Of a stretch of DNA of 32,000 bases, positions 11,262 to 32,000 are shown piece after piece. A program made the translations under genes and the position numbers. This DNA is from Okeania sp. (lineage in GTDB: Bacteria; Cyanobacteriota; Cyanobacteriia; Cyanobacteriales; Microcoleaceae): assembly GCF_035285525.1 (NCBI RefSeq), contig NZ_JAYKGW010000168.1, positions 37,960 to 69,959 on the forward strand. The letters are read 5' to 3'. Below the pieces are notes generated by a model. It was not told where the DNA came from. It did not search any database and was given only the letters and a program-made list of their open reading frames with translations. Position 1 is the first letter of the stretch; every line of letters starts with the position of its first letter.

Positions 11262-11385
11262 TCTATACAGCAAATTTCCGGCATTAAGATGTACAGGGTA
11301 AATGGTGAAAACATTGCAGTGCGGTCCGGAAAGCCTGCGCAGGTGTACCTCATAAAAATGGAAAGCGCTGTAGTATGTGTTGATA
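11262..11385. repeat. dispersed structured repeat (GGTAAAxGGTGAAAAC...AGTGCGG-hairpin-GCG..GGTxTACCTCATAA..GGAAGCxCTGTA)
   Basis: A related copy lies at about 1655-1745. A partial inverted copy lies at about 13255-13310. The central hairpin sequence differs between copies. Confidence 0.5.
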
Positions 11386-11399
11386 ATTCTATAATTATG

Positions 11400-11489
11400 A
11401 GGACTTAGGTGGCAGCCATAGATATAGTGCTTAAAACTCTGGCGCCATAGTTTTTTAACTCTATATATAGTACCTCCCATGTAAGTCCT
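11400..11489. mobile_element. MITE-like element, AGGACTTAC family
   Basis: AGGACTTAGG...CATGTAAGTCCT termini and the same core as the 10440-10528 copy, in opposite orientation. Confidence 0.6.
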
Positions 11490-11512
11490 GATTATTTTAA
11501 TCTACCCTATCT

Positions 11513-11560
11513 CCCCTACTCCCCTACTCCCCTACTCCCCCACTCCCCTACTCTCTCACT
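11513..11560. repeat. STRR-like tandem octamer (CCCCTACT x about 6)
   Basis: Directly visible periodic sequence in an intergenic region. Confidence 0.8.
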
Positions 11561-11738
11561 CCTTAATAGGTGTACCACACTAAGATAAAATCCCCTGTAA
11601 ATGTTAAGAAGTGTCATAAAACAATTTATATTAGTAACAAAATTTGTCTTGGTTTGCCTCCCAAATATCTGAGTGACCAAGATTATAGTTATGGTTGATA
11701 AACACAAACTTAGGATTAAAACTTATAGGATAATTTTT

Positions 11739-12821
11739 ATGGGCGATCAATATAATGGGGATAAAAATGTGCAACCTGCCGTTCGGCGAATTTTAGATGC
11801 CAATTTAGATAGGGCGCGGGAAGGACTGAGAATTATTGAAGAATGGTGTCGCTTTGGCCTTAATAGTGTTAATTTGGCCAATGAATGTAAACTATTACGT
11901 CAAGAAATTGGGAGCTGGCATGGCACAGAATTAAGAATGTCCCGCAATACTCCTGGAGACCCTGGTACGGAATTAACTCATCCACAAGAGGAACACCGTT
12001 CAGATGTGCAACAACTACTACAAGTTAATTTCTGTCGTTTAGAAGAAGCGCTCAGAGTTCTAGAAGAATATGGAAAAATTTATAATTCTCAGATGGCTTC
12101 TGCTTGTAAACAAATACGTTATCGAGTTTATACTATCGAAAGTGGGATTCTTGCCTATCAGAGAAATCAACAACTCCAAAACTCTTACTTATATCTTGTC
12201 ACCTCACCCCAAGAAAAATTAACTGATATAGTAGAAGCTGCTCTTCAGGGAGGATTAACTCTTGTCCAATATCGGAATAAAACCGCAAATGATGTAAGAA
12301 AGTTAACAGAAGCTCAGGAACTTTGTCAAATGTGCCGTCGCTATGGCGCTCTATTTATTATTAATGACCGAGTAGACTTAGCGATCGCTGTTGATGCAGA
12401 TGGAGTTCATCTGGGACAAGAGGATATACCTGTTAATTTGGCTAGACAACTCCTTGGTCCCCAGAAACTGATTGGTCGTTCGACCACAAATCCAGAAGAA
12501 ATGAAGCGAGCAATCGAGGAAAAAGCCGATTATATTGGAGTCGGACCAGTATATGAAACTCCGACTAAAGCAGGTAAAGCAGCAGCAGGTTTAGAATATA
12601 TTAGTTATGCTGTGAAAAATTGTCCGATTCCTTGGTTTGCTATTGGTGGAATTGATATGCAAAACTGTGATGAAGTTCTATCTGGTGGTGCCGAGCGTGT
12701 CTCCGTAGTTAGGGCGATTATGGAGGCAGAGCAACCAACTTTGGTAACTCAATATTTTCTGTCTCAATTAAATCGTTATCAAACTCTACGCTCTCATAAT
12801 ATATTACCGGAAAAAATCTAG
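11739..12821 (+). CDS. thiE: thiamine-phosphate synthase with a cyanobacterial-type N-terminal extension domain
   Basis: The C-terminal roughly 210 aa match ThiE motifs (LYLVT..., VQYRNK, FIINDRVDLA...DGVHLGQEDIP, IGRSTT, ADYIGVGPVYETPTK, PWFAIGGI). The ATG at 11739 is preferred over the upstream start of the 382-aa track ORF at 11673. Confidence 0.85.
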   Translation: MGDQYNGDKNVQPAVRRILDANLDRAREGLRIIEEWCRFGLNSVNLANECKLLRQEIGSWHGTELRMSRNTPGDPGTELTHPQEEHRSDVQQLLQVNFCRLEEALRVLEEYGKIYNSQMASACKQIRYRVYTIESGILAYQRNQQLQNSYLYLVTSPQEKLTDIVEAALQGGLTLVQYRNKTANDVRKLTEAQELCQMCRRYGALFIINDRVDLAIAVDADGVHLGQEDIPVNLARQLLGPQKLIGRSTTNPEEMKRAIEEKADYIGVGPVYETPTKAGKAAAGLEYISYAVKNCPIPWFAIGGIDMQNCDEVLSGGAERVSVVRAIMEAEQPTLVTQYFLSQLNRYQTLRSHNILPEKI

Positions 12822-12832
12822 GTTACATAGGA

Positions 12833-13048
12833 ATGTCAAATAAAATAACACTTAAGGTTAATGGAGAAACTCGCACCTGTTTACCCCAGACTCTTCTACC
12901 AAATTTTCTGGAAGAGTTGGGGTTAAACCCGCGTTTGGTAGCTGTGGAATATAACGGTGAGATTCTCCATAGACAATTTTGGGATGAAACTGAAATGCAA
13001 TCGGGAGATAAATTGGAAATAGTTACTATTGTAGGAGGAGGTGTATAG
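12833..13048 (+). CDS. thiS: sulfur carrier protein ThiS
   Basis: 71-aa ORF 11 nt after thiE. It has a ubiquitin-like ThiS pattern (ITLKVNGE..., VAVEYNGEILHR..., GDKLEIVTIVGGG). Confidence 0.85.
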   Translation: MSNKITLKVNGETRTCLPQTLLPNFLEELGLNPRLVAVEYNGEILHRQFWDETEMQSGDKLEIVTIVGGGV

Positions 13049-13143
13049 GATTTGCGTCAGGAGCCAGAATCCAGAATCCAGAAGTCAGTAGGAATGGGAA
13101 TTATAGAAGAGTCATTTCAGTTATCAGTTATCAGTAGAGAGTG

Positions 13144-13167
13144 AACCTCCGACTAAAGTCGGAGGTT
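13144..13167 (+). terminator. strong stem-loop (AACCTCCGAC-TAAA-GTCGGAGGTT) about 100 nt downstream of thiS
   Basis: Perfect 10-bp stem with a 4-nt loop. No clear U-tract follows, so it may simply be a dispersed palindromic repeat. Confidence 0.35.
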
Positions 13168-17536: not shown

Positions 17537-17950
17537 CTAAATATTAATACTTTGGGGAATATTCTCTGGAAGCAGAAACTCATAAGGCATCAAACGATCC
17601 GAACTTTGATTCCTTTTATTAATAATAGTCGCTGCCACACTCAAATTTTCTTGGAATTTTGTCAACGCTGCTTGTAATTTCTTATTTTCTGGGAAATCAG
17701 AACTACGATACTTCCCTAATTTCGTATAGTGAACTGAACACAATAAATAAAGTGTATGAATCTGACTTTGAGCTTGATTTAAAGAAGGTAAACCATCCAT
17801 AAAACTTTCTCGATCTTCAATATTAGTCGGTGGCATCAGATAATGAGCCAAAGGAAATGCGGGAACATACATCATATAAGTTTTTTGGGCAAAATTAACT
17901 GCTGCGTGTTGCGCACTGCCAGTAAAAATAATCGTCGATACCGCTTTCAA
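17537..17950 (-). pseudogene. lipoxygenase C-terminal fragment (5'-truncated remnant)
   Basis: It contains the lipoxygenase signature IIFTGSAQHAAVNFAQ and ends in ...PQSINI; the C-terminal Ile is the iron ligand in LOX enzymes. Only about 137 codons are open (a TTG-initiated track ORF), with a stop about 100 nt upstream and acs immediately beyond. A full LOX is several hundred aa longer. Confidence 0.65.
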
Positions 17951-18052: not shown

Positions 18053-20020
18053 TTACTCACCACCCCGTAACTTATCCAACACACTCCGGTCTTGCAAAGT
18101 CGAAGTATCTCCAACAATTTCCTGACCTGATGCCAAAGAACGCAACAACCGTCGCATAATCTTCCCAGAACGAGTCTTCGGTAAATCATCCGTAAACCGA
18201 ATCTCATTAGGACGAGCGATCGCTCCAATTTCCTGAACAACGTGCTGCTTCAACTCCTTCTCCAAAGCCTCATTAGCTTGGCGCTCGCCTTCTAAAGTTA
18301 CAAAAGCCACAATAGCTTCACCCTTAACCTGATCAGGTTTACCAACAACCGCAGCTTCTGCCACAGCAGGGTGAGACACCAACGCCGATTCTACTTCCAT
18401 CGTTCCCAGACGATGACCTGCTATATTAATCACATCATCAACACGACCCATGACCCAAAAATAACCATCTTCATCTTTGCGCGCACCATCACCAGCAAAA
18501 TAAATATATTCCCCATTTTTCGGGCGTAGATATTCCCAATAAGTCCGACGGAAGCGATCGTCATCACCATAAACAGTCCGCATCATTCCCGGCCAAGGAT
18601 GCTTAATGACTAAGTATCCACCATCATTACCAGCAACAGCTTCTCCCTCCTGATCCACAATATCAGCAATAATACCAGGGAAAGGCTTGGTTGCGGAACC
18701 AGGTTTAGTAGGAGTAGCACCAGGCAAAGGAGTAATCATAAATCCACCTGTTTCGGTTTGCCACCAAGTATCAACTATTGGACACCGACTGCCACCAATT
18801 ACCCGATGATACCACATCCAAGCTTCTGGGTTAATGGGTTCTCCTACTGTTCCCAATAAACGTAAAGAACTTAAATTTCTAGAATAGGGATGGTGCTCTC
18901 CCATTTTCATTAATGCTCGGATCGCAGTAGGAGCGGTGTAGAAAATGGTAACACCATATTTTTCTACTACATCCCAGAGACAACCAGGATTAGACGCTCT
19001 GGGTGCCCCTTCATACATGAGGCTAGTAGCACCATTAGAAAGAGGACCGTAAACAATATAACTATGACCTGTAATCCAGCCTACATCAGCAGTACACCAA
19101 TATACATCTGTTTCTTGCAAATCAAATGCCCATTTATTGGTAACGTGGCTATAAAGGTTATACCCCCCTGTGGTGTGTACTACCCCTTTTGGTTTCCCTG
19201 TTGTACCACTTGTGTAGAGGATAAATAGCATATCTTCACTATCCATCGGTTCTGCTGGACATTCCCCAGAAACGCCTTGCTGCAAATCGTGCCACCAATG
19301 GTCGCGTCCTGGTTCCATCTGAATTTCTTGAGCAGTGCGTTTCACAACTAGGACATTTTCTACGGTGGGAACACCTGCTGCTAATGCTTTGTCTACTTGT
19401 TCTTTGAGCGGAACAATAGCATCTTTACGCCAACCACCATCGGCTGTGACGACTAATTTGGCCTCAGCATCAACCAGACGGTTTTTCAGAGCATCTGCAC
19501 TAAAGCCACCAAAAACTACTGTATGGGGTGCGCCTATTCTGGCACAGGCTAACATGGCGATCGCTGCTTCCGGAATCATGGGCATATAGATACCCACGCG
19601 ATCGCCTTTTTTTACTCCCAATTGTTTATATACATTTGCCATTTGGCAAACTTCTCGATGTAATTGGGCGTATGTGAGGGTACGAGAATCTCCTGGTTCT
19701 CCTTCCCAAATTAAAGCTGCTTTATTGCGTCGCCAGGTGGTCAAGTGACGGTCTAGACAATTATAAGAAATGTTAATTTTACCATTAACAAACCATTTGG
19801 CAAATGGTGGCTGCCAATCGAGAACTTGGTCCCATTTTTGGAACCAGTCTAATTCTGTTTCAGCTAGTTCTGCCCAAAATCCTTCTGGGTCAGCTTTGGC
19901 TTTTTCGTAGAGTTCTTGGTATTGGTCTATGGTTTTAACATGAGCTGTTTGGGAAAATTGTTCTGGTGGTGGAAAAAGACGTTCTTCTTGTAGGATTGAT
20001 TCGATAGTTGATTCAGACAT
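18053..20020 (-). CDS. acs: acetyl-CoA synthetase (acetate--CoA ligase)
   Basis: Very clear Acs sequence (FWAELA..., [62 protein letters not shown]). The ATG at 20020 ([20 protein letters not shown]) is preferred over the upstream TTG at 20062. Confidence 0.95.
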
Positions 20021-20190
20021 CTGTTTTTTGTATTTATATTTACGGTCAATAGTTATTGACAATTTATATAATGAACGTTAAGATATTTATTTTTCTTAAG
20101 CTACCTTTAATATTTCTCGAAGCTATCCCGACCCAATTTGCCTACCACTTAAGTGTAAATTAGTCAATAAATTTTGATTTCAAGTAATTA

Positions 20191-20218
20191 GGGAGTAGGG
20201 AGTAGGGAGTAGGGAGTA
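20191..20218. repeat. STRR-like tandem heptamer (GGGAGTA x4)
   Basis: Directly visible. Confidence 0.85.
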
Positions 20219-20330
20219 GTTAAAAGTCAATCCGTCTTCCCACACTTCACACTTTCCACACTCTGCTTTTTCAGCAAACCCTAATTAATTCCTAAAATTG
20301 AAAATTAAACGCTACAATATTAAACTATTC

Positions 20331-20410
20331 AGGACTTACCCAAAAACTAAGTTAATTGACTACATTTTTTTTAAACTACAATAAATATCTTGTTTAAGTG
20401 CGTAAGTCCT
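20331..20410. mobile_element. MITE-like element, AGGACTTAC family
   Basis: AGGACTTACCC...GTGCGTAAGTCCT termini. Confidence 0.55.
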
Positions 20411-20470
20411 GTTATTGTATAAAATGTTTTAAACATTTATTTTAAGATGGGTCTGATGCTAGGAGGATGA

Positions 20471-21166
20471 TTGCAAGCAAGAGAAATCGAGCCTAAGCTA
20501 AAACAACTTAGCCGTCTTGCCTGGTCAACTGAACCTGCGTTAGCCCAGAGGTTAGAAGAAGTTAGGCGCTGGATTAAGGACATTAGACCAGGCTTACTGA
20601 CAAACAAAGGTGTTTTAGTAGGATTTTTGTTAGAATTAATTAAGGATGGAGAATTTTGGTTAAAATTACAATCATTAACAAACGAAGAAAGAGAAATATT
20701 TTTACAACATCTACCGTCCCCAGTTATATATTGGTATGAAAATCTTTTTCCCAAATGGTTTAATGAAAATGATCATAAATTTTATATATGGAAACAGAAA
20801 TTAAGATCTGGAGAGTTTAGCCAAGAAGATGCTGAACTAATAGAATCTATTGCCCATCAGATTAAAAGTCGCAATGGTTGTGTTGTACATCGTTACATTG
20901 CAGATTTGTCTATGGCAACAGATGTGATTGTGAGTAGTAGCACAGGCAAGCCTCTCTGTGTTCAACTTACTACTATGTCCGGAGAACTTTCCGAAGATAA
21001 GTACAAAGAGTGGAAAGATACATTAAAGCAATGGGAGATTAGACGAGGTATTTTTGTTAGCTATAATCCCAGTCAGGAGCGTTCTGTTGCGAAATTAGTA
21101 AATCTGGTTCTGCATAATAGCAATCATTTAAAGGAGGCTAAATACATTAAATTTTGTTTTAGATAG
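20471..21166 (+). CDS. hypothetical protein (231 aa)
   Basis: Long ORF with a TTG start 4 nt after a GGAGG motif. I recognise no family. It is flanked by MITE-like elements. Confidence 0.5.
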   Translation: MQAREIEPKLKQLSRLAWSTEPALAQRLEEVRRWIKDIRPGLLTNKGVLVGFLLELIKDGEFWLKLQSLTNEEREIFLQHLPSPVIYWYENLFPKWFNENDHKFYIWKQKLRSGEFSQEDAELIESIAHQIKSRNGCVVHRYIADLSMATDVIVSSSTGKPLCVQLTTMSGELSEDKYKEWKDTLKQWEIRRGIFVSYNPSQERSVAKLVNLVLHNSNHLKEAKYIKFCFR

Positions 21167-21195
21167 GAATTTGATTGTCAACTTCCATAAAACCT

Positions 21196-21242
21196 AGGAC
21201 TTATGCACCTCAACCAAAAAATCGACTTTTGGCTTAAGTCCT
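21196..21242. mobile_element. short MITE-like element (AGGACTTATGCA...GGCTTAAGTCCT)
   Basis: Imperfect termini of the same family, lying between the 231-aa and 86-aa ORFs. Confidence 0.4.
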
Positions 21243-21293
21243 GAAATCTTGATTTTTGAACAAAATTATACATATTAACAGTAGGCATCATAT

Positions 21294-21554
21294 ATGATAA
21301 CAACTAGCACAGCTCTATCAAATAAAGAACGTTTAGAAAAAGCTTGGCAAGCTTTCCAAGCTGTCCAACAGTTACAAGAAGATCGATTAGCTTGGGGAAT
21401 TAATCATGTTAATTTATATGTAGAAAATGTTGATGGAGATTGGCTGGAAAATTGGGGTGAAGATGAGGAAGAAGAATTAGGTGAAAAGCTAATGATGATT
21501 AAGGAGTCGGGAAGTAGGGGAATAGAAAATCAGAAGAGCAACTGTGCCTCATAA
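21294..21554 (+). CDS. small acidic hypothetical protein (86 aa)
   Basis: ATG-initiated ORF with an acidic WGEDEEEELGEK stretch. No recognisable family. Confidence 0.4.
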   Translation: MITTSTALSNKERLEKAWQAFQAVQQLQEDRLAWGINHVNLYVENVDGDWLENWGEDEEEELGEKLMMIKESGSRGIENQKSNCAS

Positions 21555-21643
21555 TTGTCGGACAGAATTGCTATAGGAATCCTATTTGAGTTATGCCAAA
21601 AATTTAGTTGCTTTCTAGGAAACAGGTGGGAATTTCAGTTTTT

Positions 21644-21797
21644 AGGACTAAAGCCATGAACGCTATTGGTAGGGTGTGTTTTGCATTCCGGAAAGCTTCG
21701 CTAACTCTCTGCGACATGGAAAACGGAGCATGACCTTAGGAAAAAGCGGTAGCCTAACGCACCAATACTCTATATATAGTACCTTTGCGTAAGTCCT
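21644..21797. mobile_element. MITE-like element, AGGACTTAC family, with a nested repeat
   Basis: AGGACTAAAGCC...TTGCGTAAGTCCT termini. The interior is similar to the 13437-13600 copy. Confidence 0.55.
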
Positions 21798-22206
21798 GTT
21801 TTTTTATTTACTTTTTGATTTGTCATATCAAATCCGCTGGTTACGGTTCCCGATAAATTGGAGAATAAAGTGATACCATGTCCGGTTGAATAATTAGACT
21901 TTGGTGGAAGGAAGGCAGCTATGCTGAAGCTCTTATGCCATTTCCACCTTGATTTTATACACGCTCCCATGCTAGCGGACATGATATGATACCATCAGAA
22001 AAACGCGAAAACTCCTAGTTTTTAGAGGGTTTGAAGACCAAACCCCTACGGTCTTAAATTCTACCAATACTAGCGGACTTGATATTATAGTTTAATTTTT
22101 CAGTAAGAATTATTAAGCGCATTGTTACAGAGAAATGGTATCACAACCTATTTAGGATTGCTATATAAATCATAATAATTGTAAATAACACAGAATATAT
22201 TAACTA

Positions 22207-22749
22207 ATGAATCATCAATATTTGCAGCAAGTTTTGTGGAGTTTGACAATATTTTTGAGTAGCTTTAATTATCAAAAATTAATCCCAAATTTGCCAGAAA
22301 TTCCCACTCTTAAACTAACTTATCTTTCCCAATCAAATACAGTAGATTCACCATATAATGAGATGGAACAATCTGTATTTAATTATGTAAATCAACATCG
22401 AAATTCTCAAAATTTACCGACTCTTCAGTGGAATTATACTATTGCTGAACAAGCAAAAATTCATGCTCAACAAATGGCTAGTGGTCAAACAACTTTTAGC
22501 AATAATGGATTTAAAGAAAGAGTAGAAATAATCAGTGAAAAAATTCCTTATAAAAGTGCGGCGGAAAACATAGCTGAAGAAGAAAAGAATGGTTATAATG
22601 ATCCTGTAAGAAAAGCTGTTGTTGGTTGGATTAATAGTCCTGAGCATCGTCAAAATATGGAAGGTGACTATAATTTAACAGGTGTTGGTATTGCTCAAAG
22701 TTCTGATGGCACATATTACTTTAATCAAATGTTTATCAAAACGAGATAA
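22207..22749 (+). CDS. CAP/SCP (PR-1-like, YkwD-type) domain protein
   Basis: 180-aa ORF with the CAP pattern: VNQHRNSQNLPTLQWN..., AENIA..., GWINSPEHRQNM, GVGIA...YYFNQMF. Confidence 0.75.
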   Translation: MNHQYLQQVLWSLTIFLSSFNYQKLIPNLPEIPTLKLTYLSQSNTVDSPYNEMEQSVFNYVNQHRNSQNLPTLQWNYTIAEQAKIHAQQMASGQTTFSNNGFKERVEIISEKIPYKSAAENIAEEEKNGYNDPVRKAVVGWINSPEHRQNMEGDYNLTGVGIAQSSDGTYYFNQMFIKTR

Positions 22750-22836
22750 ATATAGCAATCTTATGTGATTCGCGTGCAGAATTTCATTACTTTTAGAGAA
22801 CAGGGAACGGGTGATAGTTTTTGATAACAGTAGAGT

Positions 22837-25215
22837 TTAGATATCTTCAAAGAGTGGCATATAAGCATTTAATGGAGATTCTAATTCCTCAAGTAATAAA
22901 GCTATTCCGAGTATTCCTTTGTAAAGACTAAAAGGATAATTATGAAGGAAGTCAATATTTTCTAATGCTTTAATAGCTAGTTCTTTACTTTTGATTAACC
23001 AGTATGTTTCTGAGCTATATTTATACAAGTTTAAAACTGAATAAGCAGCTCCAGATAAACCACAGCATAAATCAGAAATTATATAACTATTTCCTAAGAC
23101 ATTAATTGCTGCTTTTTCTGCTAGATTCAAATAGCGATTATTACGGAAATATTTGTCAGCTATTACCCATAAATGAATTAATCCAGCAGTACCATTACAC
23201 CACCAGGGAACATATTCCAAACTTTCCCTTTTTTTACTATTAATTTTCTGTTTCCACTGCATTCCATTCTGACAATTTTCACCCATTTCCGATAATTGTT
23301 CTAGTCTTAATTCTAGAGAATTTGGTAATTCTTGTTTTGTTACTTGACACCAATGTAAAGTTCCATAGAGTAAACCTGCCCATCCATGAGCTAAACCAAG
23401 GTAAGGAAAATTTAAACATTCTCTAATTGGTTTAAAAGTGTCAATTTCTTGCCATATTTCTGATAATATTTTGTTACCTAATTCTAAAATTGCTTGATTT
23501 TCAGGGATAATTTTCATTAGTAATGAGTAACCATTGAGAATCCCGGCTTTACCCATATTTAATTCAATAGAGTCACATTTTATTTGAGATGTAATAACAT
23601 AATTATTTACTGCCTCTTGTAAACAGGTTTCATCTCCCATAGTATGACTAATTATTGCCTGCATAAAATGAATACCTGGTTGATGATAATAAAAAGAAAT
23701 TGGTTTAACTATGTCTTGATTTAAAGACAAATTTTGATTAAAAAATCCCGACTCATTGTGACATTGACTTAAGGCTTGATTATTCCATAAATCTGCAATT
23801 GATAAAAGTTCTGGATTATCCCGAATACAAGATAATCTATAGAGAAAATAAGCTGTTCCTGCTGCACCAAAAACAATGTTTGCTGTGGGCGCTCTATGCA
23901 AATTTGTCAAAGTTTCAGTAGTAAGATTACTACTGATTTGATGAATAATATTGGCTAATTTTTGTCGATTAATATGAATACTAGGAGATAGATTTTTATT
24001 TTCGGAAATTTTTGGTTTTTCTGTGATTTTTTCTAAGTCTTGAACCATTTCTGACAAAGAGAAAAAACGCTCTTGAGGTTTTTTACTTAAAGACTTAAAT
24101 AATACCTTTTCCATTTCTATCCAAGATGATAAATCTTGTGATGAAAAAGATAGGGGAATTTCCTCTTGAATTTGCCGTAACATTTCCTGTTTATCTAAAG
24201 AAAAACGAAGATAATGTTTCCCTGCTAGAAGATAATATAACAAAGCACCAATACAATATTGTTCTGCTTTTTGAGTAGATTTTAGTAAAGGTTTTTTCTG
24301 ACTCCGAGCCAGAGCATATTCAGGCTCAAAATAATATGCCACACCACCAGTACGATAATTATTTTGAGTATCTTTTTCTAATCTGGCTAGACCATAATCA
24401 ATAATTTTAATTCTTCCCACCTCATCAACTAGAATATTCCGAGGATGAATATCAATATGTAGCACTCCTTGACTGTGTAAATGAACATAAGCTTTGACAA
24501 TTTTTATAGCTAAAGATAATAGCTGATTTTTACTTCCAATAATTCCTAATTTTCGAGCTTCTCTTGCCCGACTATTTACATCAATACCAGATACCCATTC
24601 ACTCACAAAATAGGTTTTACTATCAAATTCCCCTTGATGCTCAAGTCGAGGATTAATTTTGCCGTCTAAATGTTGTAAAATATTGATTTCGTGCAAGAGA
24701 GTTTGTTGGGCTTTTTTATCTGTTGAATTTCTGACAATTTTCAAAGCCATTAAATAATTATTAGTATTTCTAACTTGATAAACTTCTACATCTTCATCAG
24801 CTTGGATAATTTTAATAATTTGAAATTGCTGAATATATTCTCCTATTTGATAAGTAGGTTCAATATTTTCTACTGCATCTGAGTTCGCAGGAACTATTAA
24901 ACCTATTTTGATAAAATGATCGACTATGGGTATGGTTTCTTGTAAAAGTTGATAAGCATCTATGGTTTTATTTCTACTAACTTTAACAACTACATCGACA
25001 ATTTTTTGAGGGGATATAAATTCTGTCATTAAATTAGCTGTGGCATTATCAATTGTTTTGGAAGGGATTCTACTACCACGACGACTAATGACATATTCTC
25101 CTTCATTTGTTTCTAGTTGTTGTTGAATATTATTAGGTAATTCAGTAATAGGAGTAATAACTACATCTTTGGGTAAAATATAATTTTGATTGGGGTCAAC
25201 TTTAGATTTATTCAT
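22837..25215 (-). CDS. Ser/Thr protein kinase fused to a LanC-like lanthionine cyclase domain, with no full-length lyase domain (lanthipeptide-synthetase-like)
   Basis: Residue numbers refer to the 804-aa track ORF. Kinase motifs are LMALK (Lys171), HIDIHPRN (Asp267) and IIDYGLA (Asp285). LanC motifs are GLAHGWAG (His622, nt 23386-23388), WWCNGTAG (Cys685, nt 23197-23199) and DLCCGLSG (Cys729-Cys730-Gly, nt 23059-23067). Only about 130 aa precede the kinase domain. The ATG at 25215 (MNKSKVDP...) is preferred to the TTG at 25251. Confidence 0.85.
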   Translation of the reverse strand: MNKSKVDPNQNYILPKDVVITPITELPNNIQQQLETNEGEYVISRRGSRIPSKTIDNATANLMTEFISPQKIVDVVVKVSRNKTIDAYQLLQETIPIVDHFIKIGLIVPANSDAVENIEPTYQIGEYIQQFQIIKIIQADEDVEVYQVRNTNNYLMALKIVRNSTDKKAQQTLLHEINILQHLDGKINPRLEHQGEFDSKTYFVSEWVSGIDVNSRAREARKLGIIGSKNQLLSLAIKIVKAYVHLHSQGVLHIDIHPRNILVDEVGRIKIIDYGLARLEKDTQNNYRTGGVAYYFEPEYALARSQKKPLLKSTQKAEQYCIGALLYYLLAGKHYLRFSLDKQEMLRQIQEEIPLSFSSQDLSSWIEMEKVLFKSLSKKPQERFFSLSEMVQDLEKITEKPKISENKNLSPSIHINRQKLANIIHQISSNLTTETLTNLHRAPTANIVFGAAGTAYFLYRLSCIRDNPELLSIADLWNNQALSQCHNESGFFNQNLSLNQDIVKPISFYYHQPGIHFMQAIISHTMGDETCLQEAVNNYVITSQIKCDSIELNMGKAGILNGYSLLMKIIPENQAILELGNKILSEIWQEIDTFKPIRECLNFPYLGLAHGWAGLLYGTLHWCQVTKQELPNSLELRLEQLSEMGENCQNGMQWKQKINSKKRESLEYVPWWCNGTAGLIHLWVIADKYFRNNRYLNLAEKAAINVLGNSYIISDLCCGLSGAAYSVLNLYKYSSETYWLIKSKELAIKALENIDFLHNYPFSLYKGILGIALLLEELESPLNAYMPLFEDI

Positions 25216-25671
25216 AATTATTGGAAGTAGGAAGTAGAAGGAAATAACCAATTATTTCTGCTCGATAATTGATGGAATTTTTGATAATCATAAATATCTA
25301 TTTAAAAGTGATATTTAGTAATCATAAATAGGTTGTAAAATTTTATAGTAGGGGTTTGGTCTCCAAAGCCTTACACTTATTGTTCGCAAATCATTTAGGA
25401 CTTGCTATTGGTAAGCATTCTGCATCGTCAGCTAACAGCTATCAGCTCCTGAAAAACATCTATAATTTCCGACTATAAATTATATGGGTTAAAAGCTCAG
25501 ATATATAGTTGAAAAGTAGAAGTTGAAGTTGAAAAAGCGCTTGACTTACTTCATTCATTAAAAAAACTAAGAGCTGACTGCTGACTGCTGAATGCTATTA
25601 ATGGTAAGTAATCAGATTTTGAATGTAAATAAAAACACATTTGCTCTAAATATTTAACATATTCAAATTTG

Positions 25672-25810
25672 CTTTAACCATACTTAAAGATGGAAATTTG
25701 GAAGTAGGGAGTAGGAGGAAGTAATCAATTATTTACCCCCTTTCCTTTAACCATACTTAAAGATGGAAATTTGGAAGTAGGGAGTAGGGAGTAGAAGGAA
25801 ATAATCAATT
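25672..25810. repeat. tandem duplication of about 70 nt (CTTTAACCATACTTAAAGATGGAAATTTGGAAGTAGGGAGTAGG...AATCAATT), with a third partial copy at 25221-25255 abutting the kinase-LanC start codon
   Basis: Copies at 25672-25730 and 25745-25810. The motif TTGGAAGTAGGAAGTAGAAGGAAATAACCAATT recurs at 25221-25253. Confidence 0.75.
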
Positions 25811-25997
25811 CCTTTAATTGTATGGTTTGAAAAGTCAAAATATTCGTTATTTCTCTGCAAATTATGGGTTAAAAATGTGAAGTACAATCAACTATTTTTC
25901 CTTGACTTTTTTGAAATAATAGCTGAATATTCAGGAAGCTAAACATTTTAAATACTGTGATTTTACTTCATTTAATATGAAGTTAATTTCTGATAAA

Positions 25998-27161
25998 TTA
26001 CGGCTGAATATTTACTATTGAAGGAATCCAATTAGTTGTATCAATGCCTTCTAAACTTAATCGTTTGAGAGCAAATATTCTCGGTTCTAAATCAGTATTT
26101 TTATTACTTTTAGCTGCAATAATGGCAGATGCTAAACGATTAGTAATCCACAGTCGCCAACTTTCTTTTTCTTGCCAATTTGGTTGATATTTATCCTGGG
26201 GAGGATCTATACCCCAAGACAGTAAACCTCCAGAAGTAATTTCAGCAGTAAAAGGAACTCCTTGAGCAGGTATATTTGTTAAAGCAGATGCTAATTTTTC
26301 GGCTGTATTTTGTAGGTTTTCTAAGGTGTAAAAATAGGCAATAAAATTATCTGGTCGCAGTAAACCACTAATCTTTTTGGCAAATTTTAGAGAGCGAGTT
26401 TCAGTATCAGAAAGAATGGCAATAACTTCTCCCAATATTTCTTTTTGAAATTCTATATTGGTACTGACATAAAGTTTATATCGCCACTGTTTTTTGTCTG
26501 TAGGTGTCTGGTCGTGACGCGATCGCCACAATGACCAATAATCTCCATATTTATTGGTGACTTTTACTGGTTCCCAATGTTTTTCTAATAAATGGTAGTG
26601 TTTTCCATCGGGGTGAAGATGGAGATATTTTACTAGATATTCTGGAGTTGAGAATGCTTGATGTCGTTTAGGAGTCAGGGGAAGTCGGTTATAAAAATAT
26701 AGTCGTGCTGATAGTTTGGTGACATCGGTAATATTCAGTTTTTCGGCGTACTCTATTGCTTTCATGGATAGTTGCGCTAGTTTACTACCGTTATTAGGTG
26801 AATATTTTTCAGGTTCGAGAATACTGTAAGCTTCAGCACCGGAAACAAAACCATTTTCTGTCTGTAATTCTAAGATACTATCTAGCAGCAACTTTTCGAT
26901 TGTGGTGTTTGTATTTTCCCCAAGGGAGGATATAATTTCTTTAGGAATTTTTCCTGGATGATGGAGATTTTGGTAGAGTTTAGCAGTTTGATGACAAATA
27001 GCTTTGATGGTTAAACCTGAATTTTCATTGGGTAGTAAAACGCCAAAAAAATCTGGGTCTTCACGGAGTTGAGAAAGGTTGTTTTGCTCGTTGGGAGTTA
27101 GGTTTTCGTAGGGAACTAATTTGTATTTTTGGTTCGCTCGGAAAATTGTGGTTTGTATCAT
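25998..27161 (-). CDS. hypothetical protein (387 aa) between the peptide gene and the kinase-LanC gene; candidate stand-alone lyase or recognition partner
   Basis: Clean ATG-initiated ORF co-oriented with its neighbours. Conserved-looking blocks are YKLYVS, LLRPDNFIAYFY, GVPFTAEI, LLSWGIDPP and ESWRLWITNRLA. The family cannot be assigned by eye, so the function is inferred from context only. Confidence 0.6.
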   Translation of the reverse strand: MIQTTIFRANQKYKLVPYENLTPNEQNNLSQLREDPDFFGVLLPNENSGLTIKAICHQTAKLYQNLHHPGKIPKEIISSLGENTNTTIEKLLLDSILELQTENGFVSGAEAYSILEPEKYSPNNGSKLAQLSMKAIEYAEKLNITDVTKLSARLYFYNRLPLTPKRHQAFSTPEYLVKYLHLHPDGKHYHLLEKHWEPVKVTNKYGDYWSLWRSRHDQTPTDKKQWRYKLYVSTNIEFQKEILGEVIAILSDTETRSLKFAKKISGLLRPDNFIAYFYTLENLQNTAEKLASALTNIPAQGVPFTAEITSGGLLSWGIDPPQDKYQPNWQEKESWRLWITNRLASAIIAAKSNKNTDLEPRIFALKRLSLEGIDTTNWIPSIVNIQP

Positions 27162-27294
27162 GTTGAAGTTGGTTATACCAGGCGCGATAAATGTTTACAA
27201 ATGGTAGAAGCAGAGGCAGAGAAACCGGGTTTGTCTTAAATGCCCTGAAATAATAATATGACCTCCAACAAACCCGGTTTTTTTATAACACTTC

Positions 27295-27380
27295 GGACTT
27301 ACGAAAACATGAAAATATAGACCATTTGTAGGGGCGAATGGCATTCGCCCATACTATCTATAGCGGTACTGCGTAAGTCT
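27295..27380. mobile_element. MITE-like element (CGGACTTACG...CTGCGTAAGTCT) carrying the palindrome GGGCGAATGGCATTCGCCC
   Basis: Family termini plus an 8-bp-stem hairpin. It lies between the peptide gene stop (27432) and the 387-aa gene start (27161). Confidence 0.55.
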
Positions 27381-27431
27381 TGATAATATGCTAGGAGTTG
27401 GCAGACTAAACCCCTACAAAATAGCGATCGC

Positions 27432-27710
27432 TTATGCAGCTAATGCCATTTTTAGTTGTTCTTGTAATTTAGACATTAAGTCATCTTGAGAGGGATAGAG
27501 CAAACTGCCTAAAACTTCCTTGAGTTCATTCTCCATAGGTGCGCCAACAGTCACGCTACAAGTGCAGGCAGTACAAGATAGATAGTTAGCTTCTACACCA
27601 ACAGTAGCACTGCAAGTACAATCAGTACAAGATAGATAGTTAGCATCAACTCCAGATCGGTTTGCTGCTTGAGGCAGAATATTAACCATTAAGTCACGAA
27701 CTTTAAGCAT
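27432..27710 (-). CDS. candidate RiPP precursor peptide with two tandem Cys/Ser/Thr-rich modules
   Basis: 92-aa ORF with an AAGGA Shine-Dalgarno-like motif 8 nt upstream of the ATG. Residues 23-40 (ANYLSCTDCTCSATVGVE) and 41-58 (ANYLSCTACTCSVTVGAP) form an 18-aa tandem repeat (nt 27591-27644 and 27537-27590). The modules differ by four synonymous codon changes while every Cys, Ser and Thr is retained. It lies first in a co-oriented set with the kinase-LanC gene. Confidence 0.75.
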   Translation of the reverse strand: MLKVRDLMVNILPQAANRSGVDANYLSCTDCTCSATVGVEANYLSCTACTCSVTVGAPMENELKEVLGSLLYPSQDDLMSKLQEQLKMALAA

Positions 27711-27769
27711 TATTTTGTCCTTAATAATTGAATTATGTTGTTTCCTGAAACTGGTTAATTAAAATGTTT

Positions 27770-27869
27770 AGGACTGACGCAAAGAAACCCGGTTTCTAGG
27801 CTAAATCATTGTTTTGAACAAGAAACATCCACGAGAAACCCGGTTTCTGGGTTCTGCTGCGTAAATCCT
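27770..27869. mobile_element. MITE-like element (AGGACTGACGCA...CTGCGTAAATCCT) containing two AGAAACCCGGTTTCT dyads
   Basis: Family termini. The internal dyads are at 27783-27797 and 27834-27848. It lies 60 nt upstream of the peptide gene start. Confidence 0.55.
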
Positions 27870-27936
27870 GATGTTTTTTCTTGACTTCGTTTCATTACAA
27901 ATAATCATAGTTCGGCTTTTTGGAAATAGATAAAAT

Positions 27937-28108
27937 GTGAAGTAAACTTTCACCTTCAATTTTATCAGAAACCGGGTTTTTGGGAAACAAAAGTAAGTAT
28001 AGTAAGAGTTCTAAATACAAACCCGGTTTCTACCCTTGACAAATAATAATGTGACATTTCTTTTCACCCTCAGCATCAAACCAGAAAATAGGTGAAAATA
28101 TAATTCAC
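27937..28108. promoter_or_regulatory. three GTGA(A/C)-N7-TTCAC dyads in the divergent intergenic region
   Basis: GTGAAGTAAACTTTCAC at 27937-27953, GTGACATTTCTTTTCAC at 28051-28067 and GTGAAAATATAATTCAC at 28092-28108. All three have identical half-site spacing. A regulatory role is inferred only. Confidence 0.35.
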
Positions 28109-28296
28109 GTTTTGAATATTAATCTAAATATCTATACAATAATTATTGTAATTGTCTACTCCATCCCTTTTCTGTTTCTCTCTATTCTCTAAATATTAGG
28201 AATATATTAACAGGCAAGATTCTTGTGCCACTAAACTATTAATATAATCTCAGGAACAGGCAAGATGCCTCTGTTACATTTGGATATAAAAAAGTT

Positions 28297-29607
28297 ATGA
28301 AAAAAGAAGTATTTCAACATATTTTTCCCTCTAAATTAACAGAGGATGAATTACAAACACTAAAGTTGTTCTTAGATGGTCATAAAGATAAAGACATTGC
28401 TGATTCCATGAATTGGGATAGGTCAAATATTCCTAGAAAATTAAAAGCGATCGCTTTAAAATTTGACTATCCTAAAAACTCTGACTCTAGTTTTGTCAGA
28501 GAGTTTTTAGTAGAAATATTCAGCAAACATCAACCCCACTTAGTTTGTCAGAAATTGAAGGATAAATATCTTGCTAGTCCTAATAAAATTATAATTCCTG
28601 GTAGACCAGAGAAATTAGATTCTCCTTTTTATATAGAACGTAATCGAATTAGACGATGTTCTATTGAATCAGAATGTTATGAAAATATAGAAGTTCCTGA
28701 TTGTTTAATCAGAATCAAAGGACCGAAACAAATGGGTAAAACTTCTCTATGAACGCGGATAGAAGGTCATGCAATTAAAAACAAATATGAATCTATCTAT
28801 CTCAGATTTGATAAACTAATTGAACCAACAAATATTAAAAATATTAATGATTTTCTCAAAGCATTCAATAAAAATATTAAAAGTAGGTTTCCTGATGCTC
28901 CTAACTGGAATAGATGGGACGACCAAAATGCCAAAATATCTTGCACTGAAGAAATTGAAGCTCTCTTATATCATTTAGATAAAGTGGTAGTTTTAATCTT
29001 AGATGAAGTGGATGAAATTTTTAACTATCCAGAAATATCTAGAGACTTTTTTATCATGTTAAGAAGTTGGTATGAGGCTAGCAACCATAAAGAAATTTGG
29101 GAAAATTTACGAATGGTAATTGCTGATTCTACAGAATATCATGGCAAATTAGATATTCATCTTTCTCCTTTTAATGTTGGTTTACCTATAGAATTAAAAG
29201 AGTTTACACAAGAGCAAGTTACTCAGTTAGTATACTTACATCAATTACCAATAAAAGTAGTAAATAGTTTGATGTCTATAGTCGGAGGTCATCCTTATTT
29301 AATCAGATTAGGTTTATATAAAATGTCGGCAGATGAATTAACAATTGAAAAACTCTTAAAATATGCTGCGACTGAAAGTGGAATTTATCAACAACATTTA
29401 AGTAGACATTTAGAAACTTTGTCTAATCAAAAAAATATTAAAGCAGTTTTTAGCCAAATATTAAAAGCTAATTCACCTCTACGTTTACCCAATAAAAATA
29501 GAGAATTACATCAATTAGAAGCTATGGGATTAATTACAATTAAAGCTGATTTTGCTGAACCTTGTTGTAAATTATACCGAAAATATTTTCAGGAACGTCT
29601 ACTTTAA
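28297..29607 (+). pseudogene. LuxR/GerE-type HTH plus AAA-like (STAND-like) ATPase, interrupted by a single in-frame TGA at 28750-28752
   Basis: The N-terminus (LTEDELQTLKLFLDGHKDKDIADSMNWDRSNIPRKLKAIALKF) fits a LuxR-type HTH. Walker A GPKQMGKTSL is immediately followed by TGA. The same frame stays open through Walker B (VVVLILDEVDE) to 29607; track ORFs 28297-28752 and 28984-29607 are both in frame 1. The PDSPFYIER...IRIKGPKQMGKTS pattern resembles cyanobacterial AAA-like domain proteins. Confidence 0.65.
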
Positions 29608-29721
29608 AGTATTTAGCTATTAGCTAGCCTCCTGTGAAGGAACTGCTAGTTTATTCTGGTCAAAGTTTAGAGAAGGCAAAAACTTATCATCTTTAGCATA
29701 TAAGCACGGCTCAAAACTAAC

Positions 29722-29810
29722 AGGACTTACGCACATACCACATGTATAGCGTTTAAAACTATTGTACAATAGTTTTTTTCTCTACATATAGTATCTCCCG
29801 TGTAAGTCCT
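29722..29810. mobile_element. MITE-like element, AGGACTTAC family
   Basis: AGGACTTACGCA...CCGTGTAAGTCCT termini and a conserved TAAAACTATTGTACAATAGTTTTT core. Confidence 0.65.
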
Positions 29811-30022
29811 GACTAATAAAAAATTCCACCTTAAAAAATTCACTTTTACAGTTTTCTTGGCAGCAAAAAAACATCATATAGCGCTGTGCTGCCGTGCAAG
29901 AGGCAACAGGCAACAGGAAAAATAAATGCCCTATAATATAAGGCTTTTAGCTATTGGACACCTCCTGAAATTTGTAAATATTAAGTGCGCACATTGCTAT
30001 ATTATTTAGGAGGAAAACTCAA

Positions 30023-30610
30023 ATGAAAAATATTGCCAAACTCACAATTGGATTAATAACAGTTGGTCTCATTAGTTGTACTAAAGTAGTATTAGCCAAC
30101 CCCCAACGGCAAAACTCCACTACCTACGATACTACTAATATTTCTCAAGTTTCCACCCCAGAAGATAATACACTTCCTGATTTTGAAGCGGAGGTAGAGC
30201 GATCGCTACTAACACAGCGAAGCGGTTCCACTTTAGAAAAAGCATGGCTTTACAGTGATAACTTTGTGATATATGAATGGTTACGTTATAGTAATGGCGG
30301 AAAACTTCATTCTAGTGGCATATATATTGAACTAACGGGGAACAAATTGACTTTATACAACTCCCACCAGTTGGAGCCATTAGGACAAAATGCCAGATGT
30401 GGTGGTTTCGGATGCAATTTAGCTAAAGGTTCCCTGGTAGCAACCCTGATTTTTGAGCGTCAAGGAAATTTATTTCTTGTGCGTGAGGCTTCGGAAAGGG
30501 CAAGTTTCTTGCAAGGTGCTAAGTGTAGAGTCAAACCTAGTTACAATGACATACTAGAATGCTCGTCACAAAATTCTCCTGCTGTTTACAGGTTTGTTGT
30601 ACCAAGCTGA
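30023..30610 (+). CDS. secreted protein or putative lipoprotein, unknown function
   Basis: 195-aa ORF with GGAGG 8 nt upstream. It has a signal peptide with the lipobox-like LISC (MKNIAKLTIGLITVGLISC). No family recognised. Confidence 0.6.
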   Translation: MKNIAKLTIGLITVGLISCTKVVLANPQRQNSTTYDTTNISQVSTPEDNTLPDFEAEVERSLLTQRSGSTLEKAWLYSDNFVIYEWLRYSNGGKLHSSGIYIELTGNKLTLYNSHQLEPLGQNARCGGFGCNLAKGSLVATLIFERQGNLFLVREASERASFLQGAKCRVKPSYNDILECSSQNSPAVYRFVVPS

Positions 30611-30728
30611 TTAAATTAAACTCAGGCAAAGCGTTCGGACATCCATTTTTTGGTTCTTTACTGACATCGATCGCCCGAATGCTTTATCTCTACAAAAATT
30701 TAGGTCTTTAAAGAAAACGGTAGCATCT

Positions 30729-31244
30729 ATGAAAAAAATAACATCAATCTTGGCAATTTCTAGTTTATTATCTTTTGGCATTTCGTTCGTAGCGATCGCT
30801 TCCCCAGCAGTCACTACCATGCAGTTGAGTCTGAGAGTAAGTTGCCAAGATGCCATAGCATCCGTGAAACGAAAAATCCAGCAAAATCGAAATATTCTTG
30901 TTCGCTTTGAAGCTAGGGATATTGCCAATTATGGTTGGGAAACAGGGAAAATTCCAAGGGGTAAAAAAATCTTGGAGATTAATATGGGAGAAATGGGTAT
31001 GAAGGGCATGAAAGGAAACAGACAAGATATGTTAAATGTAATGAACTCCCCCAAATTGTTAAGTTCTCTGGCATCGGAAGTTATTAATGGTTGTAACGAT
31101 GTGAGTGGAATTAACATTGGAATTAGCCATACTGACTACGGACGAATGTATGGTTTAGTAGGCGATCGAGTGCAGCCATTCAAATGCCTTTCGGCAGATA
31201 GAAGCAGAAGAAATCTACCTTGGGGATATATGGTTTGTCTTTAA
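30729..31244 (+). CDS. secreted hypothetical protein
   Basis: 171-aa ORF with an N-terminal signal peptide MKKITSILAISSLLSFGISFVAIASPA. No family recognised. Confidence 0.55.
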   Translation: MKKITSILAISSLLSFGISFVAIASPAVTTMQLSLRVSCQDAIASVKRKIQQNRNILVRFEARDIANYGWETGKIPRGKKILEINMGEMGMKGMKGNRQDMLNVMNSPKLLSSLASEVINGCNDVSGINIGISHTDYGRMYGLVGDRVQPFKCLSADRSRRNLPWGYMVCL

Positions 31245-31264
31245 GTCTTGATGGAAAAAGTTCA

Positions 31265-31378
31265 GTAGGGTGCGTTACACTTTGCTAACGCACCGCATCT
31301 TCTATCAGGTTCGGTGGGTTACGACGGATTGCTAAATCTCTTTCATGATCTGAATTTATGCCGTCTAACGCACCCTAC
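31265..31378. mobile_element. MITE-like element with perfect 13-bp terminal inverted repeats GTAGGGTGCGTTA / TAACGCACCCTAC
   Basis: The arms at 31265-31277 and 31366-31378 are exact reverse complements. Related termini occur at about 633-750 and inside the 13437-13600 and 21644-21797 elements. Confidence 0.55.
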
Positions 31379-31416
31379 AAATTTGCTGATGTTTAGTAAA
31401 AAGGGAGTAGTCAAAA

Positions 31417-32000
31417 ATGAAAATATCTAAGTTCGGTACTTTAATAGCGATCGCTCCGGCAATTATTGCAAGTTGGGGAGTACCTTGGGTGCGTTCGCAA
31501 CCAATTCAACTTGCACAAAATTCTGACAACTTCTTTCAGGAATGTTTAAGAAATAGTAGAAATCAAAATCAAGCCGACATGAACTATTGTGCATATTTAG
31601 ACTATCAACAGGCAGATGACACCCTAAATCAACTCTATCAAAAATTGCGATCGCAACTCTCAAGCACTAACAAAGAATTATTAACGGATGCACAGTTAGC
31701 ATGGATTTCATTTAGAGATAAAGAGTGGGTATTGAGTGTATCCACAATGGGTAGAATAAGTCCTGGTGGCAGTATGTACCCTGGTATTAAATCAAACTTC
31801 TATGCAGATTTTACCAAAAAACGCAATGTCGAGCTAGAAGCTTATGTTCGCGGTAGAACTTTACAACCTAACAGGGCTTTGTTGCATGAATGTTGCGATC
31901 GCAACTTCTCTTCTGGGAAGAAGTTAATTGGTGAATTAGAATTCTACTTTGTAACTTTCTGGCTGACAATTCTGTATCATACGATTAAGTATGGCACATT
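31417..32000 (+). CDS. DUF1311/LprI-like (lysozyme inhibitor family) secreted protein; the ORF runs off the window end
   Basis: Not in the ORF track because no stop occurs before 32000. AAGGGAG lies 10 nt upstream of the ATG at 31417. It has a signal-like N-terminus. The DUF1311 pattern is C..........Q.DMNYCAYLDYQQADDTLNQLYQKL......LLTDAQLAWISFRDKE. The antisense track ORF 31463-31663 is discounted. Confidence 0.6.
   Translation, partial: MKISKFGTLIAIAPAIIASWGVPWVRSQPIQLAQNSDNFFQECLRNSRNQNQADMNYCAYLDYQQADDTLNQLYQKLRSQLSSTNKELLTDAQLAWISFRDKEWVLSVSTMGRISPGGSMYPGIKSNFYADFTKKRNVELEAYVRGRTLQPNRALLHECCDRNFSSGKKLIGELEFYFVTFWLTILYHTIKYGT

Follow-up and report, generated by a model that had tools for sequence, protein, structure and literature searches.

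A 32,000-nucleotide (nt) stretch of the genome of an Okeania sp. (RefSeq assembly GCF_035285525.1, contig NZ_JAYKGW010000168.1, positions 37,960 to 69,959), referred to here as the window, carries three genes on its minus strand that probably form a lanthipeptide cassette. In order of transcription, these encode a precursor peptide of 92 amino acids (aa) (27432..27710), a 387-aa protein that is a candidate stand-alone HopA1/LanY-like phospho-Ser/Thr lyase (25998..27161), and a 792-aa protein (22837..25215) in which a predicted RRE (recognition element of peptides that are synthesized ribosomally and modified posttranslationally [RiPPs]) is fused to a Hanks-type Ser/Thr kinase and a LanC-like cyclase. 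An earlier note, made from the letters of the window alone, had singled out the last of these genes as a kinase-LanC fusion with no full lyase domain and with an unusual zinc motif. The analysis reported here suggests that the fusion protein is one subunit of a split lanthionine synthetase.

The reading frame of the fusion gene is open over 22837..25251 from a TTG codon, and the alignment of homologs favors the ATG at 25215 as the start codon; the gene then encodes 792 aa plus the stop. The protein is 100% identical to an NCBI entry named "lanthionine synthetase LanC family protein [Okeania sp.]," and a Trichodesmium-type protein (P0002), which begins MNKSTIDPNK, is 82% identical to it. Full-length homologs number about 45 from the database and 67 distinct ones from genomes. 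Pfam recognizes Pkinase at aa 144 to 384 (E value of 1e-28) and LANC_like at aa 450 to 787 (E value of 7e-31; profile positions 10 to 346 of 350) and assigns no domain to the first ~125 aa. The kinase domain (24016..24840) aligns with StkP, PknB, and PKA from the PDB and contains the motifs LMALK (with K159), HIDIHPRN (24436-24459), and DYG (24391-24399); K159, H253, D255, N260, and D273 do not vary among 43 database and 67 distinct genome-derived homologs. Pfam also matches the domain to APH at an E value of 4.5e-5, against 1e-28 for Pkinase. In the catalytic loop (aa 253 to 260, H-I-D-I-H-P-R-N), a histidine, H257, occupies the place of the Lys of canonical HRDLKxxN and is kept in at least 90% of the family. 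The loop resembles HxDxHPxN, which we take to be typical of APH-type phosphotransferases, although the whole domain still scores as Pkinase.

The cyclase domain (22855..23868) is full length and contains GLAHG (23383-23397) and WCNG (23191-23202). As a stand-in for a phylogeny of LanC domains, each domain of the fusion protein was scored separately against the NCBIfam models. The kinase scored 97 bits on PknB-type models and 77 bits on the LanL kinase, and the cyclase was equidistant from the LanM and LanL models at 56 bits each, so the fusion protein is not obviously a derived LanL.

The cyclase also contains a CCG triplet (C717-C718-G719; 23059..23067). In phmmer alignments against the PDB, the segment LCCGLSG of the fusion protein falls on LCHGSAG of LANCL1, ICHGTAG of LANCL2, and ICHGISG of GCR2, while WCNG falls on WCHG and GLAHG on GAAHG. 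The CCG is therefore at the position of the Cys-His pair of zinc ligands, with its second Cys, C718, where the His ligand sits; in NisC, the ligands are C284, C330, and H331 (PMC8341899). C673, C717, C718, G719, and H610 are invariant in the same 43 database and 67 genome-derived homologs, and judged by this conservation, the CCG is a family trait, neither a chance substitution nor a local mutation. A zinc ion is predicted to be bound by three cysteines, C673, C717, and C718, as Zn(Cys)3. The earlier note had read the catalytic kinase residues as intact, the GLAHG and WCNG motifs as retained, and the CCG as a replacement for the usual CHG, allowing that an alignment might separate the last two; the motifs were all found at their computed positions, and the alignments superimpose CCG on CHG.

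The N-terminal region of the fusion protein (aa 1 to 125; 24841..25215) gave no significant match in profile searches of Pfam, NCBIfam, or the PDB and was identified only by comparison of folds; sub-threshold Pfam matches to ThcOx/PqqD were present in a few members of the family only. The region is conserved across the family, with R49 and F66 as its only invariant residues and no conserved pair of lysines. An AlphaFold2 (AF2) model based on 29 homologs (predicted local distance difference test score [pLDDT], 85.9) consists of four short β strands followed by three helices. Its top Foldseek matches were TigE, PqqD (5sxy), leader-bound TbiB1, MibB, ThcOx, TglHI, McbBCD, TruD, and NisB, and 10 of the top 12 were RRE-bearing RiPP enzymes; target-normalized template modeling (TM) scores were 0.74 for PqqD and 0.74 to 0.76 for the lasso-peptide RRE TbiB1. 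As modeled, the region is a PqqD-like RRE of winged-helix fold, the type in which three helices come after a three-stranded sheet, and its predicted function is to bind the leader of the precursor peptide. The lyase domain that the earlier note had reported as lacking in this polypeptide is indeed not there: the NCBIfam LanL model matches over its positions 229 to 802 of 851 only, and the N-terminal region, which the note had allowed might prove to be a compact OspF-like lyase, is modeled as an RRE, with no lyase among the Foldseek matches of aa 1 to 125. The core enzymes of lanthipeptide classes II to V have been stated to contain no identifiable RRE (ThurKC paper, PMC10604976), and for that reason an RRE fused to a kinase would provide a tractable way to study how kinase-type synthetases recognize their substrates. 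We found no RRE fused to a protein kinase-LanC in the searchable literature.

The gene directly upstream of the fusion gene, on the same strand, is annotated as hypothetical, and its 387-aa product has no match of any kind in Pfam or NCBIfam. The family is large, with more than 1,000 homologs in the indexed database, all of them named hypothetical, and 1,579 clusters at 50% identity in an exhaustive search. An AF2 model of the protein (36 homologs; pLDDT, 87.7; predicted TM score, 0.86) matched the HopA1 effector (E value of 3e-7) and LxmY, chain B of the lexapeptide dehydratase complex LxmKY (E value of 7e-6), in Foldseek, and also the lyase domains of SalKC, ThurKC, CuvL, and PneKC together with OspF and SpvC. 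All 24 matches with E values below 0.01 were phospho-Ser/Thr lyases or their homologs, which share one fold family. Among 36 family members, Pfam reported HopA1 in three (best E value, 3.7e-4) and RamC_N in three. On the strength of the model, the protein is a fold-level relative of HopA1 and LxmY and not a demonstrable member of PF17914. A GGDEF match of the family profile in the PDB profile search (E value of 0.037) was rejected as spurious.

Eight residues of this protein (K229, Y231, S233, K259, R269, D271, Y276, and R336) are invariant in all 82 distinct family members. K229 (26475-26477) and K259 (26385-26387), along with Y231, R269, and Y276, are candidate catalytic residues. K259, R269, and Y276 are spaced by 10 and 7 residues, just as K219, R229, and Y236 are in CaoY, where K219 serves as the essential base and R229 helps the leaving group depart, as assigned by mutagenesis or alignment (PMC9486802). 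A profile-to-sequence alignment in hhalign with SpvC, taken from plasmid pSLT, places K229 on K104, Y231 on H106, and K259 on K136, although in a weak alignment (E value of 0.035; probability, 1.5%). The protein thus retains the Lys of the OspF/LanL type where LanY has Arg and, like LanY, does not have the His general acid. From its modeled fold and the conservation of these residues, it looks like an active phospho-Ser/Thr lyase. Its first ~105 aa are modeled with a strand-strand-helix-helix-strand-strand-helix topology. Their alignment with the fusion protein's RRE is in register, although weak (hhalign E value of 0.0024; probability, 12%), and TigE, to which that RRE has its best match, appears at rank 31 among the weak fold matches of the lyase. 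These ~100 aa at the N terminus may form another RRE-like domain, one for reading the C-terminal helix of the precursor.

The precursor gene lies upstream of the lyase gene. Its product, given in parts as MLKVRDLMVNILPQAANRSG-VDANYLSCTDCTCSATVG-VEANYLSCTACTCSVTVG-APMENELKEVLGSLLYPSQDDLMSKLQEQLKMALAA, has an N-terminal motif, MLKVRDLMVNIL (as peptide, MLKVRDLMVNILPQ), a core rich in Cys, Ser, and Thr, and a C-terminal helix, DDLMSKLQEQLKMALAA. In translation, the core includes two tandem 18-aa repeats, V[DE]ANYLSCT[DA]CTCS[AV]TVG (27543..27650, minus strand), each with three Cys and five Ser/Thr residues. A precursor-like small open reading frame (ORF) stands upstream of the lyase gene in 52 of 87 loci. 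The N-terminal consensus of this family is M-[A/P]-F-[K/D]-[V/I]-[K/R]-[D/E]-L-M-I, and the C-terminal helix, L..LK.QL..AL, is also conserved and extends outside the cyanobacteria as a coiled coil of 50 to 70 aa. The cores between these ends are hypervariable, often repetitive, and rich in Cys, Ser, and Thr, with 2 to 29 Cys residues and repeats such as CTGTT, ACTH, and GCYASGG. In Okeania, Trichodesmium, and Crocosphaera, both ends of the precursor are conserved while the core has diverged, as would be expected of a RiPP precursor. None of the precursor peptides falls in a Pfam or NCBIfam family.

Two tandem precursor genes that share leader and follower and have different cores occur at some loci, namely, L015 (2366-3178 and 3213-4061; 26 to 28 Cys residues each) and L032 (4797-5147 and 5443-5832). 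In Nitrososphaerales archaea, a precursor-like ORF of 245 aa (L065, 1862-2599; L067, 5214-5951) contains the N-terminal motif twice, as MSFKIRDLMITL... and ...KAFRIRDLMITIL, with a helix after each copy, only three Cys residues, and a long run of prolines, as if two precursors had been fused.

The association of the lyase and fusion genes extends well beyond Okeania. A scan of species-representative genomes with a profile of the lyase found 391 loci, of which 80 were examined together with further loci. The gene for an RRE-kinase-LanC protein directly follows the lyase gene in 73 of the 75 loci that extend at least 2.6 kb downstream; one exception is an artefact of ORF calling, and at the other, in Crocosphaera, a gene fragment lies at another place on the contig. 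By estimate, a median of 6 nt separates the two genes, and the distance is at most 33 nt in 63 of 70 loci; the stop and start codons often overlap, and at the Trichodesmium locus (L005) the genes themselves overlap. This tight spacing suggests translational coupling and fits a heterodimer such as that of CaoK and CaoY (PMC9486802).

The hosts are mostly Acidobacteriota (Thermoanaerobaculia, Acidobacteriaceae, and Bryobacterales), and the others include Chloroflexota, Planctomycetota, Gemmatimonadota, Armatimonadota, Eremiobacterota, Nitrospiraceae, Rhodocyclaceae, Bacillus, cyanobacteria, and Nitrososphaerales archaea. The cassette is also found on plasmids of Paenibacillus peoriae and Bacillus paramycoides, where RefSeq names the lyase "hypothetical protein," and a search of a plasmid collection for LanL, LanM, and LanKC sequences as outgroups yielded only additional family members in Paenibacillus, Bacillus, and Cupriavidus and two partial matches in Rhizobium. 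In many Thermoanaerobaculia loci, the cassette is adjoined by one or two proteins of ~1,170 aa with two protein kinase domains and PD40/WD40 β-propeller repeats (L029, 2101-5607; L063, 9586-13095; similar positions in L034, L044, L045, L052, and L059); these proteins are absent from the window.

We consider it likely that these three genes are a lanthipeptide cassette in which the fusion protein supplies all of the synthetase except the lyase. In the proposed scheme, the RRE of the 792-aa protein would bind the N-terminal motif of the 92-aa precursor, and the Hanks-type kinase would phosphorylate Ser and Thr residues in its core. The 387-aa protein, probably in complex with the kinase as CaoY is with CaoK, would then eliminate the phosphate in trans to leave dehydroalanine or dehydrobutyrine, with K259 as the putative base, K229 stabilizing the enolate, and R269 and Y276 assisting. 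Finally, the LanC domain, with zinc on C673, C717, and C718, would close (methyl)lanthionine rings by adding core Cys residues to the dehydro residues. A lyase encoded in trans, together with an RRE in the place usually taken by the lyase domain, explains how a kinase-cyclase protein could come to have no lyase domain of its own.

A number of observations weigh against this scheme. The Foldseek E values of the RRE matches are modest (3e-3 to 0.1), with probabilities of 0.97 to 1.0. The 387-aa protein of the window itself has no Pfam match to HopA1, and such matches are weak and confined to 3 of 36 relatives. Because the SpvC match is statistically weak, the assignment of catalytic residues depends on the register of the alignment and on conservation, and His106, the general acid of SpvC, is replaced by a Tyr, Y231. 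The lyase and fusion genes of the window are separated by an AT-rich spacer of 782 nt (25216..25997, minus strand), unlike those of almost all other loci, and for this reason their coexpression is not assured in this genome. The spacer bears short direct repeats of ~65 to 73 nt, two of them in tandem (25668-25732 and 25741-25805) and a partial third (25191-25255) that extends into the beginning of the fusion gene; no further copies were found elsewhere in the window. No protease or exporter adjoins the cassette in the window. Lastly, outside the cyanobacteria most precursors are long polypeptides of up to ~280 aa that carry a coiled coil at the C terminus. Such a form is atypical for lanthipeptides and means that the product may be a cross-linked small protein instead of a classical lantibiotic.

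This last point leads to the strongest of the alternatives, in which the same three proteins make a heavily cross-linked protein that retains its coiled coil and has a structural, metal-binding, or signaling role, or in which the LanC domain adds a thiol that is not part of the substrate, as LanCL proteins add glutathione. The best PDB sequence matches of the LanC domain are LANCL1 and LANCL2, the precursors outside the cyanobacteria (100 to 280 aa) have up to 29 Cys residues in tandem repeats ahead of a conserved coiled-coil tail of 50 to 70 aa, and the flanks of the cassette at L001 and L003, like those in the window, contain no protease or exporter. However, Ser/Thr and Cys residues occur in the precursor cores in proportions compatible with lanthionine formation, RiPP precursors typically have a hypervariable core flanked by conserved recognition ends, and the cyanobacterial precursors are short (78 to 92 aa). 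Moreover, on the conjugative plasmid p1 of Bacillus paramycoides (L086), genes for S8 family serine peptidases (268-3903 and 11331-13148) flank the cassette. S8 peptidases are the usual leader proteases of the LanP type, and by analogy, these could be the processing enzymes in B. paramycoides. We regard this alternative as unlikely.

It is considerably less probable that the 387-aa protein has only the fold of a lyase and serves as a scaffold, a chaperone, or a second substrate-binding subunit, with elimination taking place elsewhere or not at all and a phosphopeptide as the end product. The Tyr at the position of the OspF/SpvC general acid, the missing HopA1 match in Pfam, and the weak resemblance of its N-terminal ~100 aa to an RRE would all suit such a role. 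Yet every one of its 24 significant fold matches is to a phospho-Ser/Thr lyase or a homolog of one, the candidate base and its partner residues do not vary in any of 82 sequences, and LanY enzymes are active lyases even though they too have no His at this position (PMC9486802). A zinc-dependent LanC would, in addition, have no electrophile to act on if there were no lyase.

The remaining two alternatives concern the fusion protein and are very hard to sustain. That it is a decayed, nonfunctional class IV LanL that has lost most of its lyase domain might be supposed from LanL being its best NCBIfam match and from the atypical repeat-bearing spacer that parts it from its upstream partner, but decay is effectively refuted by an intact ORF and by catalytic residues that are invariant in more than 100 homologs from many phyla, and the N-terminal region is conserved and confidently modeled as an RRE, while the kinase scores higher on PknB-type models than on LanL. 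That aa 1 to ~125 are a miniaturized OspF-like lyase, making the fusion protein self-sufficient, is equally hard to credit: the region stands where LanL and LanKC have their lyase domain, and class VI enzymes with truncated lyase domains have been mentioned (as cited in PMC10676316), but its β sheet and three helices match PqqD, TbiB1, and other RREs and no lyase, only R49 and F66 are invariant, with no Lys pair, and a complete candidate lyase is encoded by the adjoining gene.

A scan for promoters and terminators over 22500-28300 found fewer promoter-like sites than in shuffled controls and terminator-like sites at chance level, and an Rfam scan of 20000-32000 gave no match. A CAP (cysteine-rich secretory protein) family gene (22207-22749, plus strand; Pfam) converges on the 3' end of the fusion gene, and nothing ties it to the cassette. 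On the other side, two plus-strand ORFs (28297-28752 and 28984-29607) match positions 4 to 47 and 129 to 331, respectively, of the Pfam profile AAA_35 and look like one gene split by an interruption of ~230 nt or by frameshifts, possibly a pseudogene. A 137-aa ORF (17537-17950, minus strand) that matches only the C-terminal part of a lipoxygenase domain (529 to 656 of 673) is an apparent gene fragment beside an acetyl-CoA synthetase gene.

We found no description of the three-gene architecture in the full-text literature, although most papers in subscription journals lie outside that search and an earlier description is possible. A computational survey from 2024 does tabulate a lyase/kinase-type dehydratase combined with a CCC cyclase ("L-CCC"), with eight predicted peptides, some of them cyanobacterial, and clusters from Leptolyngbya and Oscillatoria acuminata (PMC11251773). 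To judge from that table, a three-Cys site in a kinase-type system had already been noted in silico, though not with the architecture set out here. The lyase family (~1,600 clusters) has no Pfam model and is annotated only as hypothetical, and the precursors have no model either. These clusters are probably overlooked by genome-mining tools or show up in them only as a lone LanC-family protein. The family spans soil Acidobacteriota, bloom-forming marine cyanobacteria (Okeania and Trichodesmium), and Nitrososphaerales archaea, in which the biosynthesis of lanthipeptides is virtually unexplored.

Lanthipeptide classes are defined by the architecture of the synthetase, and among them class IV (LanL; VenL, SgbL, and CuvL) has much in common with the fusion protein. 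In both, a Hanks-type kinase is N-terminal to a zinc-type LanC in one polypeptide, and the chemistry would be phosphorylation followed by elimination by a lyase of the OspF/HopA1 fold. The fusion protein differs in having an RRE in place of the in-chain lyase, with the candidate lyase here a separate protein, and in its zinc ligands, which are Cys-Cys-Cys as opposed to Cys-Cys-His (C769, C814, and H815 in SgbL [PMC8341899]). LanL is its best-scoring NCBIfam model, at 139.3 bits against an equivalog cutoff of 650; of the class IV hallmarks, the Hanks-type Ser/Thr kinase with its catalytic residues is present, whereas the lyase domain and the CCH site are not. Class III (LanKC), whose cyclase domain has neither the zinc ligands nor the catalytic His, does not describe the protein either, given that the zinc ligands C673, C717, and C718 as well as H610 are present and invariant and that the LanKC model gives 79 bits against a cutoff of 575.

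The lyase, by comparison, points to class V (LanK and LanY, with LanX or, in class Vb, a stand-alone LanC such as SmoC). Class V has a stand-alone lyase of the HopA1 fold (LanY, PF17914), to which the 387-aa protein is related at the level of its modeled fold, and, as here, a kinase on a separate protein. LxmY is among the matches of the lyase model, Lys, Arg, and Tyr are spaced as they are in CaoY, and the tight coupling of the genes suggests a kinase-lyase complex like that of CaoK and CaoY. In contrast to class V, the kinase here is of the Hanks type (PF00069) and not the APH type (PF01636) and is joined to LanC and an RRE, the putative enolate-stabilizing residue is Lys, as in OspF and LanL, where CaoY has Arg, and the lyase is ~390 aa long with an extra N-terminal domain. 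Class V has been reported so far only from Actinobacteria, and class Vb, with its stand-alone LanC, is the nearest split analog (PMC12328550).

The zinc site recalls the ProcM-type enzymes of class II (CCG LanM, "type IIa D-CCC"), which also have three Cys at the CHG position, hypervariable substrates, and an occurrence in marine cyanobacteria. These use a DUF4135 dehydratase, where the cassette has a kinase and a candidate lyase in trans, and they act on many dispersed precursors, in contrast to the single adjacent one found here. Pfam detected no DUF4135 domain in the fusion protein, the LanM model matches its cyclase part only, at 52 to 56 bits against a cutoff of 304, and its LanC domain lies as far from LanM as from LanL. 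An invariant Zn(Cys)3 site in a second, evolutionarily separate lineage with hypervariable, Cys-dense substrates would offer an independent test of the proposed link between a three-thiolate zinc and high or promiscuous cyclase reactivity. The streptococcal "class VI" enzymes LanKCt and LanKCb (He et al. 2023, as cited in PMC10676316 and PMC12328550) resemble the fusion protein in being kinase-centered synthetases with no full-size lyase domain. As described in those citations, they have a truncated lyase and a truncated cyclase and make miniature four-residue rings, whereas here the cyclase is full length, the N terminus is a predicted RRE, and a full candidate lyase is encoded separately. 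Finally, the winged-helix N-terminal fold is shared with RRE-containing RiPP enzymes (PqqD; TbiB1; the class I LanB proteins NisB and MibB; and LynD, TruD, and ThcOx from cyanobactin pathways), and the short conserved N-terminal motif of the substrate would suit binding by strand addition, as in those systems; no counterpart to the fusion of the RRE with a protein kinase-LanC was found in the searchable literature.

The earlier note's difficulty in placing the fusion protein therefore holds up against each of classes II to VI as they are defined. Tentatively, and with somewhat more doubt than confidence, we propose that the cassette is the first recognized example of an undescribed class of lanthionine synthetase, made up of a HopA1-fold lyase and an RRE/Hanks-kinase/Zn(Cys)3-LanC fusion. 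Its precursors would be recognized at both ends: the RRE would take an N-terminal β-strand motif, and a second site, perhaps the RRE-like domain of the lyase, would take a C-terminal helix or coiled coil. Its products would be densely cross-linked peptides or small proteins built from repeats, and it would extend to more than 1,000 clusters of sequences from Acidobacteriota, Chloroflexota, Planctomycetota, Bacillota, Cyanobacteria, and ammonia-oxidizing archaea. By the convention of the field, the cassette would probably be called a new class if the biochemistry agrees. We read the chemistry of phosphorylation, elimination, and zinc-dependent cyclization as known in kind and the modular arrangement and the large uncharacterized family as new. 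The cassette joins modules previously seen only in separate classes, namely, the RRE of class I, the Hanks-type kinase and zinc LanC of class IV, the stand-alone HopA1-fold lyase of class V, and the three-Cys zinc site of ProcM-type class II.

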